IMG/VR virus record: IMGVR_UViG_3300036783_000080
Span: 32,001-96,000 of that record
DNA length: 64,000 nucleotides
Source of the DNA: a virus
Lineage: Duplodnaviria > Caudoviricetes
Reading direction: 5' to 3' (one strand)
Positions 2,392-64,000 of the stretch are shown piece after piece. The position numbers were made by a program, and so were the translations under genes. Position 1 is the first letter of the stretch. Each line of letters opens with the position of its first letter. The notes below the pieces were generated by a model, which worked only from the letters and a program-made list of their open reading frames with translations, was not told where the DNA came from and searched no databases.

Positions 2392-4638
2392 TTAATCCTG
2401 CACACCGTTGAACAAAATATCTTTAATATCGCTTGAAGATAAGTTAGCACCGATTTCAGTGGAAGAGCCTGATGCGTTCTCTCCAAGAAGTTGGTCAATC
2501 ACTTGAGCCTTTTCTTGTACTTTTGCCATCTTAGTCACTTCAATCGTTCCAACCATTCTCGGTGATAAGAAAGTTGTGTATGGGTTTGGTTGACCATTAC
2601 GTGTGATACGTCCGCAACGTTGTACGTAACTTTTTGGCACCCAAGGAATATCAAGGTGAATCATTGTATGACCTCCATGTTGTAGGTTGATTCCCTCTTC
2701 TCCTGCGTTCGTACAAAGCATAACTCTGATTTTACCAGCGTTGTAAAGTTCCATCTGCTCAAAGCGGCTTTTCTCTTTCACTGAACCGTTTATCTCGCCA
2801 ATCTTAGCAGGATGGACTCCGTTTTTCACAAGGTGGTGTCTAAGTTTTTCTAGTGGGAGTTTCTTGTCACAAAAAATTATGATTCCTCTATTTTCCACAT
2901 CTTCAAGGTGAGCAAGAATCGTTTCCAAAGCCCACTCAACTTTCGGATATAATTTATCCATGTCAGCTTTATTTTTATCTTTTACTAAATCAAGGTCAAG
3001 AGCTACTTGCTCAAGTCGAGTTAACATTGCCAAGATATTTGGTGGAATAGAGTTTCCTGTAAGTTTCTGAACTTCGTTCTGAGCTTCCTTCAGTAAGGCG
3101 TTATAAAGTTTCTTCTGGTCTTTATCCATCGACAATTCAAATGTTGTATGACGTTCTTTAGGAAGTGCTGCTTCAACGTCTTTACTGCTATGAGTACGAA
3201 TCATAACAATTTCTTTCATCTTTTCACGAAGCTCTTTCAAGTCTTTAAATCCAACAGGAGATTCAATGTATTTAACGCCAGTCCATACGGTTTCTGTTTC
3301 AACGAAGTCTCTGCAGAAGTCCCACCAATGTCCAACTTTCTTTTCCTGTACGTTACTTAACATTGTGTGAGTTTCTTTTGGCTTACCATTAGGGAATGGA
3401 GTTGCTGTAAGAGACCAAGCATATTTAGCAGCTCCCCAGTACTGTCTGAACGCCTTCGTTGATTTCGTTGTGATACTTTTCAGCTTGTGTCCTTCATCAG
3501 TTATAATCAAATCAGGACAAAGCTTTACAAGTTCAGTTGCTATTTCATCTTTTCTAATCATCTCATAGTTTACAATCAGGAAAGAACTTTCAGCCGCCGC
3601 TTTCCAAGTCTTCTCTGCTTTCTTCCCTCTTAAATCTTCAGAGTTCATAACCAAAGCTGTTTCATCAGTGAACTTCGTGATTTCCTTTTCCCACCCACGC
3701 TTTACAGATTTTGGAGCGACAACAAGAACTTTCTTCACTTCACCTTTATTCAAAAGATACTTCGCTGCCGTGATAGCAGTTAATGTTTTACCTAAACCAA
3801 CCGCAAACCCAAGAATCGTTCTTCTGTTACTTAGAAGGAACTCAACGCCTGTTTTCTGATACTGGAATAAATTAAGTTCTTTTGACATACCTTTCGGCAT
3901 TTTGAATTTAACTTTCTCAACTTTGTACTTCATCTTTTCGGCTTTCGTGTTTATGTTCTCAAAGTTAATGTTTTCAAGAACTCGTTTCACCGCTGGTGCG
4001 ATAACTTTTGAAATCTCTATATTCTTGAATACTTTGAAAGCATCTAAAAGTTGACTGAATGGAATGTACCATTTCTTAGTTCCGTGATAGTCAAACCGTC
4101 CATTCAATAAATCTTTAACCAATCCTTTATCTTCAAACGCAACGTCAACCAAAATGTAATGGCCACCGTCCCATTGTTTCATATTGTCGATAAATAACAT
4201 TCTCATATATCCCGTAGCCGCTACAGGTTTGCCATATTGATTTATAGTTTGTTGAAATCCTTTTCCAATGACAATCGTGCCATCTGACTCTTCTTTATAA
4301 GTTCTTTCTACGTTTGTAAGAAAACTTTCCATTCTGCTTGTCGAGTTTTCAACCTCTGGAACTCTAATCTCATTTTTAACTTCTTCTACAGGTTGAGGTT
4401 TAAAGTCAACAGGAGACTCAAAACTAACAATGAAAACGTTTCCCTTTGATATATGTTTATTAATAGCCATTGCACATCTCATCCATTTAACTTTAAATGT
4501 TTCACTATCTTTCCAAGTTAACCCAGAATTAATCGCAATCGTCATTATTCGCTCTCTATCCTCTGTTTTTAACTTCTTACAGAACTGCTTAAATTCCTTA
4601 GTTGTATCAAACCGTTTTAAGCTTAGTGTTGAAATCAT
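2392..4638 (-). CDS. SNF2/SWI2-family SF2 helicase/translocase with N-terminal extension
   Basis: LFQYQKTGV, GLGKT (Walker A), DEGH (Walker B), LTATPFPN, GEEGINLQ, QRCGRITRNGQ motifs. Confidence 0.92.
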   Translation of the reverse strand: MISTLSLKRFDTTKEFKQFCKKLKTEDRERIMTIAINSGLTWKDSETFKVKWMRCAMAINKHISKGNVFIVSFESPVDFKPQPVEEVKNEIRVPEVENSTSRMESFLTNVERTYKEESDGTIVIGKGFQQTINQYGKPVAATGYMRMLFIDNMKQWDGGHYILVDVAFEDKGLVKDLLNGRFDYHGTKKWYIPFSQLLDAFKVFKNIEISKVIAPAVKRVLENINFENINTKAEKMKYKVEKVKFKMPKGMSKELNLFQYQKTGVEFLLSNRRTILGFAVGLGKTLTAITAAKYLLNKGEVKKVLVVAPKSVKRGWEKEITKFTDETALVMNSEDLRGKKAEKTWKAAAESSFLIVNYEMIRKDEIATELVKLCPDLIITDEGHKLKSITTKSTKAFRQYWGAAKYAWSLTATPFPNGKPKETHTMLSNVQEKKVGHWWDFCRDFVETETVWTGVKYIESPVGFKDLKELREKMKEIVMIRTHSSKDVEAALPKERHTTFELSMDKDQKKLYNALLKEAQNEVQKLTGNSIPPNILAMLTRLEQVALDLDLVKDKNKADMDKLYPKVEWALETILAHLEDVENRGIIIFCDKKLPLEKLRHHLVKNGVHPAKIGEINGSVKEKSRFEQMELYNAGKIRVMLCTNAGEEGINLQHGGHTMIHLDIPWVPKSYVQRCGRITRNGQPNPYTTFLSPRMVGTIEVTKMAKVQEKAQVIDQLLGENASGSSTEIGANLSSSDIKDILFNGVQD

Positions 4639-4738
4639 TTTTATAACTCCTTTCGCACTCTCTATTATTTATATTATCCTAAAACAAGAAAGGTTATTCT
4701 TGTTGATTATCTGTTGTCCGTTGTTAATGCTTATCCCT

Positions 4739-7192: not shown

Positions 7193-7453
7193 TTATTCCA
7201 CAGAAATATTTTCTTCAACGATAATATTGTTTATATCAACGTATTCTTGTAAATAAATCATATTGGCCAGAATCTCATCAATCGTATCTACAAGTGTTTC
7301 ATACACTTCTCTCTGGTCAAGTTGGTATTGCGTTTCTAAAGGCTCTTGAAGATATAGAAGAAACAACTTTGTCAAAACAAACTTTCTAAGAGTTAACATC
7401 GTCAAAGCATAATCATCTTGAAATAAAAATAGGAACTTATCAGTTGAACGCAT
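7193..7453 (-). CDS. Hypothetical protein
   Basis: AAGGAGG RBS. Confidence 0.7.
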   Translation of the reverse strand: MRSTDKFLFLFQDDYALTMLTLRKFVLTKLFLLYLQEPLETQYQLDQREVYETLVDTIDEILANMIYLQEYVDINNIIVEENISVE

Positions 7454-7520
7454 AAATATCTCCTCCTTAATGGATTTAATAAATGATACGCTACTCTGAC
7501 AAGTCCCTATTCCTAATCAA

Positions 7521-7892
7521 TTATAATAACCATTTTCCAGTTGCAATAAAGGAGATAATCACCGCAGCAAGTTTTAAGATGTCGATGATGATTCCTCTCC
7601 ATCCTTGCTCCTTGTCTACCTTTTCCGCAATCTTTGAAACATCTTCTTTTAACTCACGTTGACTCTCCAAGAAGTTACTGAACATAATTTCGATTCTGTC
7701 ATTGAATGATGCAACTTCATCTACTTGTTCATTTAACTTCTCGAATTTGGTCTCAACCTTTTGTTGGAACTCTTTATGTTCCTTTTTGATTTCCTTGAAC
7801 CCTTCCTTCTGAGACTCTTTAATCTCATGAAGCTCTGTCTCTAATTGTTCAAGACGTTGATTAATAAGAGCAACGTTGAATTCTTCCCTCAT
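7521..7892 (-). CDS. Coiled-coil protein with C-terminal TM anchor
   Basis: Heptad-rich body, hydrophobic IIIDILKLAAVIISFIATGKWLL end. Confidence 0.75.
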   Translation of the reverse strand: MREEFNVALINQRLEQLETELHEIKESQKEGFKEIKKEHKEFQQKVETKFEKLNEQVDEVASFNDRIEIMFSNFLESQRELKEDVSKIAEKVDKEQGWRGIIIDILKLAAVIISFIATGKWLL

Positions 7893-8377
7893 GACAACTC
7901 ACCAACCTCTCTGAAAGCATAAAAAGCTTGTAGAGCAAACACGGCATAGATGACTGAGCTCATGTTCATGTTATTTGCTCCCAGTAAAAAGAAACCTGCT
8001 GAAATTGAAGAATAGACAATTGCACTGAACATTAAACTTCCTCTGCGTAGGTGTTTATGTCCTTTGAAGATACCATATAAGGATATTGTACCATTCAAAC
8101 CAAATAACGTTCCCCAATGGTAAGGCTCTGAGAATGACGCAAGCATATCTGGGAATGAATCCAGTGCGTTTGTCTTCGTAAACAGAACGGCAGCCGCCCA
8201 GAAGGAGATAATCACAAGACTCAATTCAAGTATAACAGATGCATTAACACGTTCTCTTTTTCTTGCTGCTGCAAATAGCTCTCGTTGTTGTTTTAACTCT
8301 TCAACTTCCATTTCTACTTTTTGTAGTTTCTTAATTACTTCTTTTTCTTCTGTTTTGTTACACATCTTATAACACAC
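7889..8377 (-). CDS. Multi-TM membrane protein
   Basis: About four hydrophobic segments; ATGA overlap with next gene. Confidence 0.75.
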   Translation of the reverse strand: MCYKMCNKTEEKEVIKKLQKVEMEVEELKQQRELFAAARKRERVNASVILELSLVIISFWAAAVLFTKTNALDSFPDMLASFSEPYHWGTLFGLNGTISLYGIFKGHKHLRRGSLMFSAIVYSSISAGFFLLGANNMNMSSVIYAVFALQAFYAFREVGELS

Positions 8378-8455
8378 CTTTCTGTTTAACGTAATTGCAA
8401 CTACAAAAAAGAATCCTACAAATCAGAATATTGTAGGATTCCAGTTGTGATAATA

Positions 8456-9436
8456 TTATGGTAAGAATTTAAATAAATCTGGGTTTGTAAGGATGTGAGT
8501 TATTTCATTGACTTGGTTATCTGTTATCTTTGTTCCAGCTGCTGGGGGATGTCCGCCACCACTCTCATGGAACATTTTCGCTACTTGTCCAAGGTCAATA
8601 TCAACAGCTTCACGTCTTCGCAAGCTCATTGTACCATAACCAATGTTAACCATAATGACAAAATCAATATCGCGATTCTCGTCACAAATTACATTACCCG
8701 TTTCTGAATGGTATGATTCGTTGAAGATAAGTCCAACATGATATTTATTGCCTTCAAGTTCAATGTCCATCTTTTTAAGTTCTTTAGACTTCTGTTTGAT
8801 ATGACGTTTAATACGTTTTTCTTCAAGTTCCAACAAACGCTGTTCTGTATGACTAAACTGAATATCTGGATTCTTCCAGAAACGTTCTTCAAAGTCCCAA
8901 AGTCCTACAATCTGAAGAAGGTCATTCAGTTGTTTGGCAACTTCGTTACCGTAAACATTTTTCCACTCCCAAGAATCGTACATGCGGACATGCTCAACGA
9001 ACTCTGCCAGGAAAGTATTGCTGCTTGCTTCGTCACTAGGGAACAAACTAATAAGAGTCTCATATAACAAGTTTGTTCCGCTTGTAATCTGATTTCTGTT
9101 TTCCTTATAGTTAGGTTGAACAGGAGTAACAGAAGCCCAATCATATTCGTTTAGCCATTCAGCGGTTTTGTGATGGTCAACTAACATGAACTTTGTAGCG
9201 GATTCAAATTCGATTAAGTCGGCCACTTCTTTATCAACAGAGATATCAGTTATGAATACTACGTCATAATTTTTGATTTCTCCTGATAAAATGAACTCTT
9301 TAACCTTCTCATTGATTTTCCCATAGGAACAATATTCAACATCTAACTGCTTTTGGAAGTAATGTCTTGCTACTATTGCACAACCAACTCCATCTAAGTC
9401 AGTGTGAGTAAATTGTTTAGCCTTGAATAATGTCAT
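8456..9436 (-). CDS. DHH/DHHA1 phosphoesterase (NrnB-like nanoRNase/oligonucleotide PDE)
   Basis: THTDLDG, ITDIS, VDHH, SLR, GGGHPPAAG motifs. Confidence 0.9.
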   Translation of the reverse strand: MTLFKAKQFTHTDLDGVGCAIVARHYFQKQLDVEYCSYGKINEKVKEFILSGEIKNYDVVFITDISVDKEVADLIEFESATKFMLVDHHKTAEWLNEYDWASVTPVQPNYKENRNQITSGTNLLYETLISLFPSDEASSNTFLAEFVEHVRMYDSWEWKNVYGNEVAKQLNDLLQIVGLWDFEERFWKNPDIQFSHTEQRLLELEEKRIKRHIKQKSKELKKMDIELEGNKYHVGLIFNESYHSETGNVICDENRDIDFVIMVNIGYGTMSLRRREAVDIDLGQVAKMFHESGGGHPPAAGTKITDNQVNEITHILTNPDLFKFLP

Positions 9437-9940: not shown

Positions 9941-9973
9941 ATAATAAAAGGAGCGACTCATAAAAGTCACTCC
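9941..9973 (-). promoter_or_regulatory. Hairpin/promoter hybrid element
   Basis: GGAGTGAC-TTTTATGA-GTCGCTCC-TTTTATTAT; 26 bp identical to copies at 31239 and 56216. Confidence 0.65.
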
Positions 9974-10731
9974 TGAAGTTCACCTTGTCTATACAGTTTG
10001 TAATACTCTTTAGCCTTCTTTGTGAGTCTGGATATATGAGATTGACCAAATCCAACATAGTCCTCAATTTCTTGCTGCGTTTTACCCTGCGCACGTAGTT
10101 GTATAATAGGAATACATTTCTCATCATGTTTTTTAAGGATTCTCAGAAATCGTTGGAAATCGTCTGCGAACTCTAAGTCTTCATATTTCTGTTCATTGAA
10201 TCCAAATCCTTCATTAAGGTCGCACTCAACATCCCCGTCATTATTATATGAGAAGTCCATACTGAGCATGTTTTTAACTGTTTTATCGTATTCAAGAGCT
10301 TCCCTGACGTGGTTTTCCTTCTCTCCTAATTTAGAACATATTTCTTCAACAGGAGCATCAAGCAGAGCATTGGATGCTAATTTCACCCCAAGCTCTCTCA
10401 CTCTCCTTGGAACGTATATTCCATTATGTTGTGTTGCATTCAGATATGCCATCATATATCCGTTCATCATTCTATAAGCGTAACTTGAAAACTGAGCTTT
10501 TCTTCCATCTTTTTCGTGGTTAGGATTATATTTGTTATATGATTTTAAGAATGCTATTTGAGATTCTTGATATAGGTCGTCAAAAGTTAGTCCCAAAAAT
10601 TTGGCTGACTTTCTAAAACGATATGCGATTGAGTGTACCAATCTTTTGTGCTTTTTCAACACAACCTCAAAGTCCTCAAGATATTCATTATGTGGCTCAA
10701 GTGTCTTTCTTTCTTCCGCCGCTGCTCCCAT
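9967..10731 (-). CDS. Sigma-70 family RNA polymerase sigma factor, SigB/SigF/SigG-like
   Basis: Region 2 LVHSIAYRF..DDLYQESQIAFLKSYNKYNP..FSSYAY, IYVPRR, region 4 GKTQQEIEDYVGFGQSHISRL. Confidence 0.88.
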   Translation of the reverse strand: MGAAAEERKTLEPHNEYLEDFEVVLKKHKRLVHSIAYRFRKSAKFLGLTFDDLYQESQIAFLKSYNKYNPNHEKDGRKAQFSSYAYRMMNGYMMAYLNATQHNGIYVPRRVRELGVKLASNALLDAPVEEICSKLGEKENHVREALEYDKTVKNMLSMDFSYNNDGDVECDLNEGFGFNEQKYEDLEFADDFQRFLRILKKHDEKCIPIIQLRAQGKTQQEIEDYVGFGQSHISRLTKKAKEYYKLYRQGELQE

Positions 10732-59302: not shown

Positions 59303-59600
59303 TTTCTCTTAGATAATCAATACCATCCGTCACTCGGTACTCTTCATGATACATAACTGTTAACACTCCTTCTTCAACTAATCGCTTTGCGCAGTCTAAA
59401 CAAGGAGAATGAGAGACAATCACCATTTTTGGGTTATCGTAACTCATCTGTTCCAAAAGATTGATTTCTGCGTGAGTACATCCGCAAGCTCCTGGGACAT
59501 TTGAACATTCTTTATGATTATAGTTTCGAGCTTTACCAATCGTTCCGTCAACAGTAATACCGATGGCCACAACTTTCATACGTTTACATTTATTGTCCAT
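59256..59600 (-). CDS. Minimal CMP/dCMP deaminase-family protein
   Basis: HAE and SPCLDC zinc motifs, YHEEYR..GIDYL. Confidence 0.85.
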   Translation of the reverse strand: MDNKCKRMKVVAIGITVDGTIGKARNYNHKECSNVPGACGCTHAEINLLEQMSYDNPKMVIVSHSPCLDCAKRLVEEGVLTVMYHEEYRVTDGIDYLRENGVHVSKLFGLPEDE

Positions 59601-60588
59601 CCCATTCACCTTCTTCATCATCTTCACGTGGAGTGTTCATTTGATTCTCGATATCTTCATCATTTTCGTTATCAAAAATCTTCTCTACAACCTGAACCAA
59701 CCAGTTTGAATCGAAATTGAATGTTGGGTCTTCTAAGCGTTTAGAATGTACCGTATCAATAAGAATGCTCATATATGTTAAGTCTACACCAGTGAGTTGG
59801 TCTTCTAACACTAATGGGTCATTCAGATTCAATTCACTCACTTGGAATATCATCTTCAACACTTGTCCTGCGTTGATTGTGTACCCTCTAGCGATGAACT
59901 TTCTCATACGAAGAATAGACGCAATCGGATATTTTGAACCTGAGTAACGAAGTTCTTTTGTCATTATAGATGTGAGAGTTTCAGCAGGAAGCGTTAACTT
60001 ACCAGTATTGAATAAACTTCCACCTGTCCAATAAGCTACGCCAGTTGGCTCCCAATACGCTTGACAGTGAATGTAATCAAAGTTCTTGTGAACTTCTTCT
60101 GGGCTGCCGTGGAATCGCATAATTAATTGAACACCATCTGATAACGTGATAGCGTTTGAAGATAGGAAAATAGGTCTGAAGTTCTTTTCGTCCTTTGGTT
60201 TCTTTGACTCATCTTTGGGTTGTAATCCTAGTCCTCTGCGGTTGATTTCGTCTTGTTCCATTCCTTCCGTATCTTCAGCGATACCTTTTGAACGAATCAT
60301 TACTTTGACACGTTTCTCTTCAAGAGATTTTAAATCCACACTAGCATGAGTGTCGTGATGTTTATTCCATCTATCTACATAATAACCAGCAACCGCTCTA
60401 CAAGTTTCAAAATCTTTAAAATAGATATCATAGTCATTCGGCTCTTCATTTCCTAATAGGGAAACAATAGCACCCCCAGAAATAAAACAATTCTTTTCAA
60501 CCAGTTCACTCACCTTTTTATCATCTATAGACTTTACCCAGTTTTTGTGAATACGTGCTAATCTTGATTTAATCTGTTTCGTTAACAT
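59590..60588 (-). CDS. Pol-beta-superfamily nucleotidyltransferase (phage type)
   Basis: FISGGAIVSLL..EPNDYDIYF, SSNAITL, QLI, NFDYIHC, YPIASILRMRKFIARGY. Confidence 0.8.
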   Translation of the reverse strand: MLTKQIKSRLARIHKNWVKSIDDKKVSELVEKNCFISGGAIVSLLGNEEPNDYDIYFKDFETCRAVAGYYVDRWNKHHDTHASVDLKSLEEKRVKVMIRSKGIAEDTEGMEQDEINRRGLGLQPKDESKKPKDEKNFRPIFLSSNAITLSDGVQLIMRFHGSPEEVHKNFDYIHCQAYWEPTGVAYWTGGSLFNTGKLTLPAETLTSIMTKELRYSGSKYPIASILRMRKFIARGYTINAGQVLKMIFQVSELNLNDPLVLEDQLTGVDLTYMSILIDTVHSKRLEDPTFNFDSNWLVQVVEKIFDNENDEDIENQMNTPREDDEEGEWDGQ

Positions 60589-61854: not shown

Positions 61855-61950
61855 TTTCCCTTCTTGGTAATTGGTTTTTATTACCTTACAACTTCATTAT
61901 AATATATCTTGTCCCTTATTTCAAGCATTTATACCAAAAATTGTAACAAT

Positions 61951-64000
61951 TTATTTCTTTTTCTTATTGCCCACGCTCATTAACAAAAGCTCATCCTCAA
62001 GTATAGCTTCTTGTACTTCTTCTATCGGCTTTCCATACTTCGTTAAACATTCTTTGATATATTCAGAATTGTCATATACTTGTAACCCACGTTTGTATGG
62101 TAAATCGTTCATCTTAACTCGGATAACTGGTTGATTCTTCTTATCTGCCAATACTCCAACCATAGCTTCATGCATTTTAAGCTCCATACAGTCTTCTAAA
62201 CTGAAATCTGGTTCAATACGATGCAAGAACTTCTTCCATAACTTATCACTATTTTGTTTTAATACAACAAAGTTACAACCAGAAGATATCATTATGTCTC
62301 CTAAATCTTTAGGAATCTGTGCGAAGTCGTGGAATAAACTAAACACACATAATCCGAACTTTCGTGACTCTGGATAGATTTCTTCAAGCGTTGAAGCTAA
62401 TGATTTAGTAAGGAATTGATGTGGCTCGTTCATTACAAGATAGGATTGACAATACTTTCCTTGTCGCTTCATAGCTTGTTTTGCCAACCAAGTCTTAACT
62501 GTTAACCAATGAACCAAAGTTCTTATCCCTGTTGAAGTGAATATATCTTTCGGAACTTTACAAATAATAACCTTCCCATCATACAACCATTCGTCAAAGT
62601 TGATAGAGCCATCACCTTGTTGTCCAAAGATAACTTTTAATGCTGGGTCACCGACAAGTTTGTGTAAGCGATTCAGGATTGGGTCGGCAATCTGTTTCTT
62701 TCGTCCATCTCCAATCTCTTGATAGAGCTTCCAGAAAGCCGCTGTTGAGATGTCTTTTCTCTTTTCGCAGTCAGCTATTGTCTTTTCAAGGAACTCAGGA
62801 GATGTAAACATTAAGCCCATCTGAATAACTGTTCCATTTGGTAATGCTTTCGCCGCTTCTCTCAAATAACGTTCCGTTTGAACGCCAGCTTCATCCTCTG
62901 TTTCAAAGAACTTCACCAATTCAGAAGCGAACTTGTTTTGTGTAAATCGGTCTTCCGTTCTCATTGCCTCAACCCAATCTAAATACGGCACATACTCTTC
63001 ATTTCCGAAATCTAACACTACAAGCTTCTCTGGAGGTAATGTTTTGATAATCGCATCCGACATCCCTCTGTCAACTTCGTCAACTACGTCCAATATAACC
63101 GCCCCTTTACCCATCAGAGCGTTTTCAACTATAAAGTTAGCGGCGAACGTATCTTTTCCACTTCCCATAATACCAGAGCTTATAATTGGAAGCATAGCTT
63201 CATCAGGATTATCAGCAGGAAAGAACGTTTCAAACTCTTCTCCTTTATAGGAAGTTTTACCAAGGAAGACTCCAGTTGGTTTCAAGAACACATCAGGAAT
63301 CCCAACTTCAGACCTTTGTAGCACATCCATTTTATCTCCATAAATCTTCTGAAGCTTTGAAGTTGGAAGTTGCATAACCTTTCCCAGCTCTCTATCACAC
63401 ATTATCATATAATCTGTATCGGCTACAGATAGCGGCGTCACCTTATGTTCACTTATTTCTTTATGAGCCATTTTAAAGAAAGAGCTTGAAGGATTCTCAT
63501 ATATAGTCGTTCTTATGAGAGCGTTGTTGGAATCCTTCAAATCATCAAAAGCATTCGTCAAAGATTTCATATTCATCGTTCTTCTCACTTCATCTGTACT
63601 ATGACTTGCTACACGGATATTTGCTTTGAATACTGGAGCTGTCTGTTTATATCCAGTTTGTCTTGAAATCCCTCCCACTTCTCTTGTCTCTGCTGAAGCG
63701 TGGTTGACAACTATTTGTTGAGTTTTCTGTTTCTTGAACGCTATTGAATGAAGCTCTCTAAACATAAGAGACAATTTATGGAAAGCTATGTCACTCAATC
63801 CAAATAACGCTCCTATGACTCCATCTTTGGTGATTCTTAATCTTATTGGAGCTTTACCCTTCAATGTTTTCTTATGCCACTCTTCGCACTTGTAAGACCA
63901 GTAATTCATATCAGAGGGTTTAACCCTCATAGAGAACTTAAGTACGTCACCTTCTCGGATATCTTCAGAGCAAGCCAGTACATCTTGTACTGGTTGAGCT
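61951..64000 (-). CDS. VirD4/TraD-type coupling-protein-like (HerA/FtsK superfamily) ATPase, 5' end outside the window
   Basis: GIMGSGKDT Walker A, ILD, PILNRL, GKVIICKVPK, LVMNEPHQF Walker B, ESRKFGL..HDFAQ; frame open to 64000. Confidence 0.75.
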   Translation of the reverse strand, partial: AQPVQDVLACSEDIREGDVLKFSMRVKPSDMNYWSYKCEEWHKKTLKGKAPIRLRITKDGVIGALFGLSDIAFHKLSLMFRELHSIAFKKQKTQQIVVNHASAETREVGGISRQTGYKQTAPVFKANIRVASHSTDEVRRTMNMKSLTNAFDDLKDSNNALIRTTIYENPSSSFFKMAHKEISEHKVTPLSVADTDYMIMCDRELGKVMQLPTSKLQKIYGDKMDVLQRSEVGIPDVFLKPTGVFLGKTSYKGEEFETFFPADNPDEAMLPIISSGIMGSGKDTFAANFIVENALMGKGAVILDVVDEVDRGMSDAIIKTLPPEKLVVLDFGNEEYVPYLDWVEAMRTEDRFTQNKFASELVKFFETEDEAGVQTERYLREAAKALPNGTVIQMGLMFTSPEFLEKTIADCEKRKDISTAAFWKLYQEIGDGRKKQIADPILNRLHKLVGDPALKVIFGQQGDGSINFDEWLYDGKVIICKVPKDIFTSTGIRTLVHWLTVKTWLAKQAMKRQGKYCQSYLVMNEPHQFLTKSLASTLEEIYPESRKFGLCVFSLFHDFAQIPKDLGDIMISSGCNFVVLKQNSDKLWKKFLHRIEPDFSLEDCMELKMHEAMVGVLADKKNQPVIRVKMNDLPYKRGLQVYDNSEYIKECLTKYGKPIEEVQEAILEDELLLMSVGNKKKK

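Follow-up and report, generated by a model that had tools for sequence, protein, structure and literature searches.

The 64,000-nucleotide stretch analysed here (the window) comprises bases 32001-96000 of a complete virus record, IMGVR_UViG_3300036783_000080 (G000; 150,650 bp, rated complete), and at its right-hand end lies most of a large minus-strand gene for an ATPase, the subject of this report. The minus-strand frame is open across 61951..64000, up to the final window base, and in the complete record the whole gene occupies G000 93951..96482 (-), or 61951..64482 in window numbering, and encodes 843 amino acids (aa). Because the gene extends past the window end, the window (61951..64000, minus strand) holds only residues 162-843 and the stop codon, a part recognised by its PHROG 5156 match and an AlphaFold2 model, while 161 codons lie past base 64000. 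The ATG at 63930, at which a 659-aa open reading frame (ORF) starts, is internal to the 843-aa gene. The window DNA shares 93% identity with that of Bacillus phage Nachito (Herelleviridae, Spounavirinae), whose annotation is that of a standard lytic SPO1-like myovirus and whose counterpart of the ATPase gene has 843 codons and is annotated 'hypothetical protein'. An initial annotation of the window had taken it for part of a Herelleviridae-type genome, and the identity to Nachito and the Nachito annotation bear this out: the phage is of the Herelleviridae/Spounavirinae type.

The ATPase matches PHROG 5156 ('unknown function') with an E-value of 7e-179, its in-window part covering profile positions 157-813 of 824, and this family includes gp32 of phage SPP1 and gp27.4 of phage SPO1. 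By tblastn, SPP1 gene 32 (26.5% identity, 97% query coverage, E 2e-84) and SPO1 gp27.4 (21% identity, 98% coverage, E 4e-32) were recovered, along with further homologues among cultured phages (CP-51, 0305phi8-36, Basilisk-type phages and others); queries with different family members also recovered Tsamsa-type phages and phage G. An exhaustive search yielded 1502 cluster representatives at E <= 1e-3 and 359 at E <= 1e-10, the homologues being mostly 750-900 aa long and aligned end to end, and a locus search with a close alignment returned SP-10 and one other contig only. The gene is real, well conserved and cut by the window. The module to which it belongs has already been noticed in phages SPP1 and SPO1, where it is uncharacterised, and the present gene adds a member. 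The SPP1 re-annotation (PMC6316719, Godinho et al. 2018) describes gp32 as non-essential, places its gene in PE5, a unit transcribed early in vegetative infection, and likens its C-terminus to TrwB, VirB4 and FtsK on the basis of HHpred; its authors proposed that gp32 and two membrane proteins, gp31.1 and gp31.2, may make up a translocon whose role was 'to be established'. In the later literature we found no paper giving the family a function.

An AlphaFold2 model of the ATPase, built from a 64-sequence alignment, reached a mean predicted local distance difference test score (pLDDT) of 86.5. The C-terminal ATPase domain (residues 396-843; 61954..63297, minus strand), delimited by structure matches and by a family profile run against PDB sequences, is modelled as a RecA-like core with an inserted helical bundle at about residues 505-630. 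Residues 395-803 best matched the C-terminal domain of Thermoanaerobacter VirB4 (4ag5; Z 27.9, root-mean-square deviation 3.5 Å, 339 aa); the C-domain of DndH (Z 26.1), HerA (Z 25.8) and TrwB (Z 24.3 over 365 residues) also matched, and the FtsK motor (Z 18-19) scored below VirB4, HerA and TrwB. The family profile matched HerA at E 5.7e-7 and TrwB at E 3.5e-5. These structure and profile matches confirm the assignment to the HerA/FtsK superfamily that the initial annotation had made.

The N-terminal domain (residues 1-395, of which residues 162-395 lie in the window at 63298..64000, minus strand) is predicted to have the fold of the VirB4 N-terminus. Folded alone, these 395 residues formed a soluble domain (pLDDT 87.9), and when this domain was compared with 48,161 PDB representatives without a prefilter, the best match was TrwK/VirB4 (Z 15.5, 3.8 Å, 252 aa), the next chain scoring 9.0 and the others 7 or less; Foldseek agrees on this match. 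No transmembrane segment was found in the ATPase, in which the 19-residue Kyte-Doolittle maximum is 1.39 against a threshold of 1.6. Since the best N-terminal match is VirB4 and there is no membrane anchor, the layout is that of VirB4 and not that of the membrane-anchored VirD4. The initial annotation had described the protein as VirD4- or coupling-protein-like: its kinship with the ATPases of type IV secretion systems (T4SS) stands, as do VirD4-type Pfam matches within the family, but the missing transmembrane anchor and the VirB4 fold of the N-terminus do not fit VirD4 itself. We are dealing neither with a coupling protein nor with a conjugative phage; the initial reading of the gene was too narrow by one family. 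Because the models show a VirB4 architecture while the few Pfam matches in the family go to VirD4-type models, we place the family on a branch of its own, outside both curated families (VirB4 and VirD4).

The nucleotide-binding motifs of the ATPase are unusual. The Walker A variant GSGKD (residues 440-444; 63151..63165, minus strand) has an Asp after the lysine instead of the usual Ser or Thr, and the Walker B variant NEPHQ (residues 685-689; 62416..62430, minus strand) has an Asn instead of the usual Asp before the catalytic Glu686 (VMNE). Both motifs had been reported exactly beforehand, and in the alignment they fall on the Walker A and B positions of the family; all 64 aligned sequences have K443 and E686. 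Among 154 members covering both motifs, the states were KT/DE (83), KS/DE (34), KD/NE (36) and KD/ND (a single member), and no mixed state, for example one motif altered alone, occurred. In a maximum-likelihood tree, the D/N state fell into one clade of 30 tips with a support of 1.0, which points to a single change, i.e., one evolutionary event, rather than to repeated covariation. This GKD/NE clade includes SPP1 gp32, whereas SPO1 gp27.4 carries the canonical GKT/DE, and the altered pair is kept in clade members whose identity to this ATPase is only about 27%. Judging from the alignments, the ATPase is probably still functional, and the acidic metal ligand may have shifted from Walker B to Walker A in an enzyme that still works.

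Directly upstream of the ATPase gene, on the same strand and beyond the window end, lie four small membrane-protein genes; transmembrane partners adjoining the ATPase, which the initial annotation had proposed to look for, are therefore present. Nearest to the ATPase is the gene for P0003, a 183-aa membrane protein that by alignment is a homologue of SPP1 gp31.2 (G000 96469..97020, minus strand; L006 3470..4021); its end overlaps the ATPase start by 14 nucleotides (nt), and a partner gene overlaps the ATPase start in SPP1 too. It is preceded by genes for a 27-40-aa single-helix peptide recognised by its hydrophobicity (G000 97014..97136, minus strand; L006 4015..4137), for a 139-aa TrbC/VirB2-like protein that aligns with SPP1 gp31.1 as its homologue (G000 97109..97528, minus strand; L006 4110..4529) and for a 33-aa single-helix micropeptide recognised by conservation (G000 97525..97626, minus strand; L006 4526..4627). 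Farther upstream, the sequence contains a promoter region with a terminator-like hairpin (G000 97627..97748, minus strand; L006 4628..4749). Just 3' of the ATPase stop there is a sigma-A-like promoter, TTGAAA-17-TATAAT (61896..61924, minus strand; a consensus match only, 11/12), an indication that the genes farther downstream belong to another unit and that the ATPase gene closes the operon. With a hairpin ahead of the micropeptide gene and a promoter after the ATPase stop, the five genes look like one unit.

This arrangement is shared with relatives. The 33-aa micropeptide is kept in 7/7 clade members examined, and in 7 clade members it is found together with the 139-aa protein and with a two-helix protein whose gene overlaps the start of the ATPase gene. 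Aligned with their SPP1 counterparts (the 139-aa protein with gp31.1, P0003 with gp31.2), the partners show 20-22% identity and have hydrophobic helices in common. In the 139-aa protein, a long basic leader is accompanied by a hydrophobic segment with a conserved A-x-A end, a putative cleavage site, and by two hydrophobic helices with a GNGK loop between them; its hydrophobic segments span residues 42-60 and 86-106. PF04956 (TrbC/VirB2) is listed for 9/10 of its homologues, first or alone in 8, and some homologues bear the Joint Genome Institute product name 'VirB2 pilin'. Similarly, a C. botulinum plasmid has a gene annotated at NCBI as 'TrbC/VirB2 family protein' directly beside the ATPase gene, and in a 51-kilobase (kb) B. 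cereus phage-plasmid a VirB2-like gene lies upstream of the ATPase gene, with one small gene between them, a few genes past the lysis cassette.

P0003 itself gave no match in PADLOC, NCBIfam or Pfam. In four relatives, the P0003-type protein has an intact-looking Peptidase_M23 domain ahead of the conserved membrane hairpin; in this phage a proline-rich stretch takes its position, and the domain is absent in SP-10 and LysYB1. When the two partner families were aligned with each other by hhalign as a test of paralogy, the probability was 0.6%. A predicted complex between the N-terminal domain of the ATPase and the C-terminal portion of P0003, computed without controls, scored 0.00 and counts neither way.

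We assign a probability of roughly 55% to the reading that the gene encodes an accessory phage ATPase of VirB4 layout, derived from a T4SS, which as the last member of a five-gene operon forms a minimal secretion-type translocon with its membrane partners. As a working model, the evidence best supports a VirB4-type motor that associates with the membrane and acts on the VirB2-like partner or together with it. In this model, the small partners would hold a ring of the ATPase on the cytoplasmic side of the host membrane, where it would hydrolyse ATP via an altered, compensated metal site composed of the GKD Walker A and the NE Walker B. The energy would be used either to extract VirB2-like subunits from the membrane, yielding a fibre or channel, or to drive a macromolecule through the partners. 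Either way, the phage would make a minimal secretion-type translocon during infection, one that may be dispensable for lytic growth in the laboratory, a dispensability reported for SPP1 only (PMC6316719).

Several observations weigh against this reading. The ATPase has no match in Pfam, or in NCBIfam, even at E 10, and among 55 family members the Pfam matches are to TrwB_AAD_bind (8/55), T4SS-DNA_transf (5/55) and TraG-D_C (5/55), the VirB4 models CagE_TrbE_VirB and AAA_10 accounting for 0/55 and 1/55, respectively; as the Pfam matches in the family go to VirD4-type models, the term 'VirB4-like' rests on predicted structure. The C-terminal Z scores for VirB4, DndH, HerA and TrwB are within 4 units of each other, so this domain does not discriminate between them. 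As to the VirB2-like partner, the PF04956 matches of its homologues (profile positions about 9-94 of 98, E 3e-5 to 0.6) are all under the 27.9-bit gathering score, and the 139-aa protein of this phage has no Pfam match of its own. Alignments of the partners showed no similarity by hhalign to gp27.8 and gp27.5, small neighbours of the SPO1 homologue. VirB6 and VirB8 are not annotated in Nachito, models for the two not having been searched directly, and with no VirB6-, VirB8- or VirD4-like gene a complete channel cannot be named. Moreover, no member of the ATPase family has a demonstrated function, and distant relatives lie amid housekeeping genes, so that secretion is not necessarily what the ancestral protein served.

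Among these distant relatives, the farthest matches of an indexed search carry DUF8128 together with TrwB_AAD_bind, T4SS-DNA_transf, TraG-D_C or DUF87, with DUF8128 in the same position as the N-terminal domain of the ATPase (the DUF8128 assignments, like those of Gad2 below, rest on precomputed Pfam matches of relatives). In two metagenome contigs, L016 and L017, a DUF8128-ATPase gene is found amid a ribosomal protein operon and genes for SecY and adenylate kinase, and in each it follows one small-protein gene, in one case with a bPH_2 domain. Both contigs are chromosomal sequence of candidate-phyla-type bacteria, and distant clusters of the family also come from Actinomycetota and Chloroflexota.

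The resemblance to T4SS ATPases had led the initial annotation to consider a conjugative phage-plasmid, and with it the presence of relaxase and Replic_Relax genes nearby. None of the models Relaxase (PF03432), Replic_Relax (PF13814) and T4SS-DNA_transf (PF02534), however, matches anything in the complete genome, and of 79 plasmid records with a homologue, 50 are non-mobilizable, 29 mobilizable and 0 conjugative. That the ATPase is a VirD4-type coupling protein of a conjugative phage-plasmid is consistent with the TrwB_AAD_bind, T4SS-DNA_transf or TraG-D_C matches of some family members, with the TrwB Z of 24.3 and with the SPO1 homologue, which adjoins a Replic_Relax gene. Yet the ATPase lacks an N-terminal membrane anchor and has a VirB4-like domain in its place, no relaxase, Replic_Relax or VirD4 gene was matched in the complete genome, the genome carries the genes of a lytic SPO1-like myovirus, and the homologue-bearing plasmids are never typed conjugative (the one examined being a phage-plasmid). 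We consider this possibility highly improbable. A conjugative phage-plasmid is rejected for this genome because its transfer genes were unmatched, no relaxase, Replic_Relax or VirD4 gene being found, and because the gene content is lytic.

In SPO1 (L005), genes for an actin-like segregation protein (2989-4008; ALP_N, E 2e-27) and a Replic_Relax protein (7675-8499; E 3e-12) flank gp27.4, and the gp27.4 cassette looks plasmid-derived in its gene content. Counterparts of these actin-like and Replic_Relax genes are absent from this phage.

The HerA match (Z 25.8) and the lack of a membrane segment would also suit a cytoplasmic HerA-like DNA translocase or helicase serving phage replication or recombination, to which the membrane genes would be unrelated. 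The position of the gene fits such a role as well, for in the Nachito annotation it comes after a block encoding DNA polymerase, UvsY-like, SSB, RecA-like, exonuclease and ligase proteins. We nevertheless think this improbable: the N-terminal domain matches VirB4, with no HerA chain among its PDB matches, a NurA-like nuclease partner is absent, the membrane-partner genes extend over the start codon of the ATPase gene and hold their position in separate phage and plasmid lineages, and the SPP1 module is non-essential (PMC6316719).

An accessory, non-essential module in an early unit, as described for SPP1 (PMC6316719), might also be an exclusion or competition device, in which the ATPase and its partners at the membrane, to the advantage of the resident phage, keep out or expel incoming DNA from other phages, conjugative elements or transformation, or disturb envelope machines of the host. 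The surroundings are those of an accessory-gene region: a Gad2 (anti-Gabija)-related protein is encoded 1.4 kb downstream of the ATPase, and in Nachito a 'super infection domain' protein is encoded about 11 kb away. In addition, the fold is common to HerA- and DndH-type defence ATPases, and distant relatives of the ATPase match the PADLOC model mad8. The ATPase itself, on the other hand, matches no PADLOC model, it has no linked gene for a nuclease or another effector, and nothing at the locus is specific to exclusion, so that we hold this explanation to be unlikely. In the same region, the window encodes at 59590-60588 (-) a 332-aa nucleotidyltransferase-like protein (phrog_4400) that is 50% identical (E 3e-119) to the Gad2-bearing protein of a relative.

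A further explanation concerns sporulation. The module could be a DNA pump of the forespore or septum which, made in infected cells that are sporulating, moves the phage genome across the septum and so lets it survive in a 'virospore'. The host range of the family favours this. In three divergent tblastn queries (109, 90 and 145 phage records), all hosts were endospore-forming Firmicutes (Bacillus, Geobacillus, Lysinibacillus, Brevibacillus, Alicyclobacillus, Terrisporobacter and Clostridium) except that of one Microcystis phage, and phages of Staphylococcus, Listeria, Enterococcus, Streptococcus and Lactococcus were absent from the three result sets. Phages of those non-sporulating genera are numerous in the phage collection searched. 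Plasmid matches came likewise from sporulating genera, namely Bacillus (44), Clostridium (28) and a small number of further ones. Among the genes of this phage is one for a SigB/SigF/SigG-family sigma factor, and SPO1, which is reported to form virospores (PMC12991052), has the module beside its actin-like segregation gene.

Set against this, the restriction to spore formers could reflect a gene pool common to Bacillus phages, farther relatives occur in lineages without endospores, the SPP1 operon belongs to the early unit PE5 (PMC6316719), and no DNA-binding element was identified. We scanned the regions upstream of the operon in seven clade members for the sigma-A, -E, -F, -G and -K consensus, in comparison with shuffled sequences. 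In this phage, neither the sigma-E, -F, -G and -K consensus (p 0.56-0.85) nor a sigma-A-like promoter rose above the shuffles, and only a GGAATA element is common to the upstream regions of the clade. The outliers, all uncorrected, are mutually inconsistent: a near-consensus sigma-E-type element in the relative L014 (GAATAGG-14-CATACAAT, 13/15, p 0.03), a sigma-F-like one in L013 (p 0.02) and a sigma-A-like one in LysYB1 (p 0.05). Overall, a forespore pump appears doubtful. The same low expectation applies to a broader proposal, namely that phages of spore formers build a minimal VirB2/VirB4 conduit, in some cases with the wall-cutting help of an M23 domain, and pass the phage genome through it, without a virion, into the forespore or a neighbouring cell of the chain; we offer it as a speculative idea.

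Two features elsewhere in the genome touch on transcription. The 254-aa sigma factor, encoded in the window at 9970-10731 (-), is assigned to the SigB/SigF/SigG subfamily by TIGR02980 (E 2e-22, far under the equivalog cut-offs); by its sequence it is a phage copy of a sporulation- or stress-type sigma. A genome-wide search for a GAATA-N16-19-CGTATC-type motif found two intergenic sites, about 1.5 matches genome-wide being obtained in shuffles. The two GAATA-N16/17-CGTATC(A/T)T copies lie in the window at 7453-7512 (-), 59 nt upstream of an 86-aa gene without a Pfam match, and at about 4660-4690 (-) of L006, upstream of the operon; from these two copies, they may be a small common promoter class.

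The surroundings of the operon hold further genes and elements. A gp33/gp34-like late-transcription pair sits just upstream, at L006 5437-6401 (-), i.e., G000 98436-99400, and encodes a Phage_Gene33 protein (E 2e-38) together with a sigma-70-family protein of 216 aa, resembling gp33 and gp34 of SPO1. Between two terminator-like hairpins, at L006 4750-5020 (-), there are about 270 nt without a convincing ORF, nearly identical in Nachito and without an Rfam match, and the 600-nt region upstream of the operon gave no Rfam match either. A gene for a GIY-YIG homing endonuclease is found just 3' of the ATPase gene in L014 (6592-7290) and in Nachito (L003, 14907-15596), not in this phage, and in the relatives L010 (9175-10392) and L015 (7918-10625) two or three TerD-family genes lie a few kb downstream of the module. 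At the genome ends, the final 100 nt of G000 are repeated at bases 178-277 and the final 200 nt are not; this short offset end repeat is possibly an assembly trace of terminal redundancy.

On present evidence, then, the module is a well-conserved accessory operon. It is spread over unrelated lineages of Bacillus phages, including SPP1-, SPO1-, SP-10- and Tsamsa-like phages, phage G and phage-plasmids, and since SPP1 and SPO1 are genetically tractable, its function is directly testable. The whole VirB4 layout, the constant VirB2-like companion, the endopeptidase fusion in some phages and the revertible GKD/NE pair provide new handles for doing so. If the cargo were phage DNA, the module would amount to virion-independent genome transfer and could explain how lytic phages enter spores; a function in exclusion would make it a novel type of interference at the level of the membrane.

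Of the known systems, SPP1 offers the closest comparison. The ATPase resembles SPP1 gp32 in its full-length homology, its GKD/NE pair, its clade and its upstream partners of the gp31.1 and gp31.2 type. The two phages differ, however, this one being a 150-kb SPO1-like myovirus and SPP1 a 44-kb siphovirus; here the operon comes after gp33/gp34-type sigma genes, whereas in SPP1 it comes after the lysis cassette, and this phage has two additional micropeptide genes and no detectable sigma-A-like promoter. While the SPP1 paper reported similarity at the C-terminus only (PMC6316719), a VirB4-like N-terminal domain and a VirB2-like partner are added here. SPO1 gp27.4 is also a full-length homologue with several very small ORFs ahead of it, but it differs in its canonical GKT/DE motifs and in its neighbours, gp27.9 (actin-like) and gp27.3 (Replic_Relax).

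The likeness to VirB4 (R388 TrwK, 7o42 and 8rtd; 4ag5) lies in the length of about 800 aa, the lack of a membrane segment and, in the models, the best match of both domains, as well as in a small membrane-protein gene directly upstream and a VirB2-like gene in the operon. Unlike VirB4, the ATPase has no VirB4 profile match, its Walker A and B motifs are altered, and it is encoded by a lytic phage; unlike VirB4 systems, this phage has no match to VirD4 or a relaxase, and no VirB1-type gene. With VirD4, TrwB and TraG the ATPase shares a nucleotide-binding domain with a helical insert, but a 395-aa soluble VirB4-like domain replaces their transmembrane anchor and there is no relaxase partner. Finally, it has in common with HerA, DndH/DptH and FtsK/SpoIIIE the P-loop core of the additional strand, catalytic glutamate (ASCE) class, with the Walker A lysine and the Walker B glutamate, and differs from SpoIIIE in having no polytopic membrane domain and from HerA and DndH in having no linked nuclease or Sir2-type partner.

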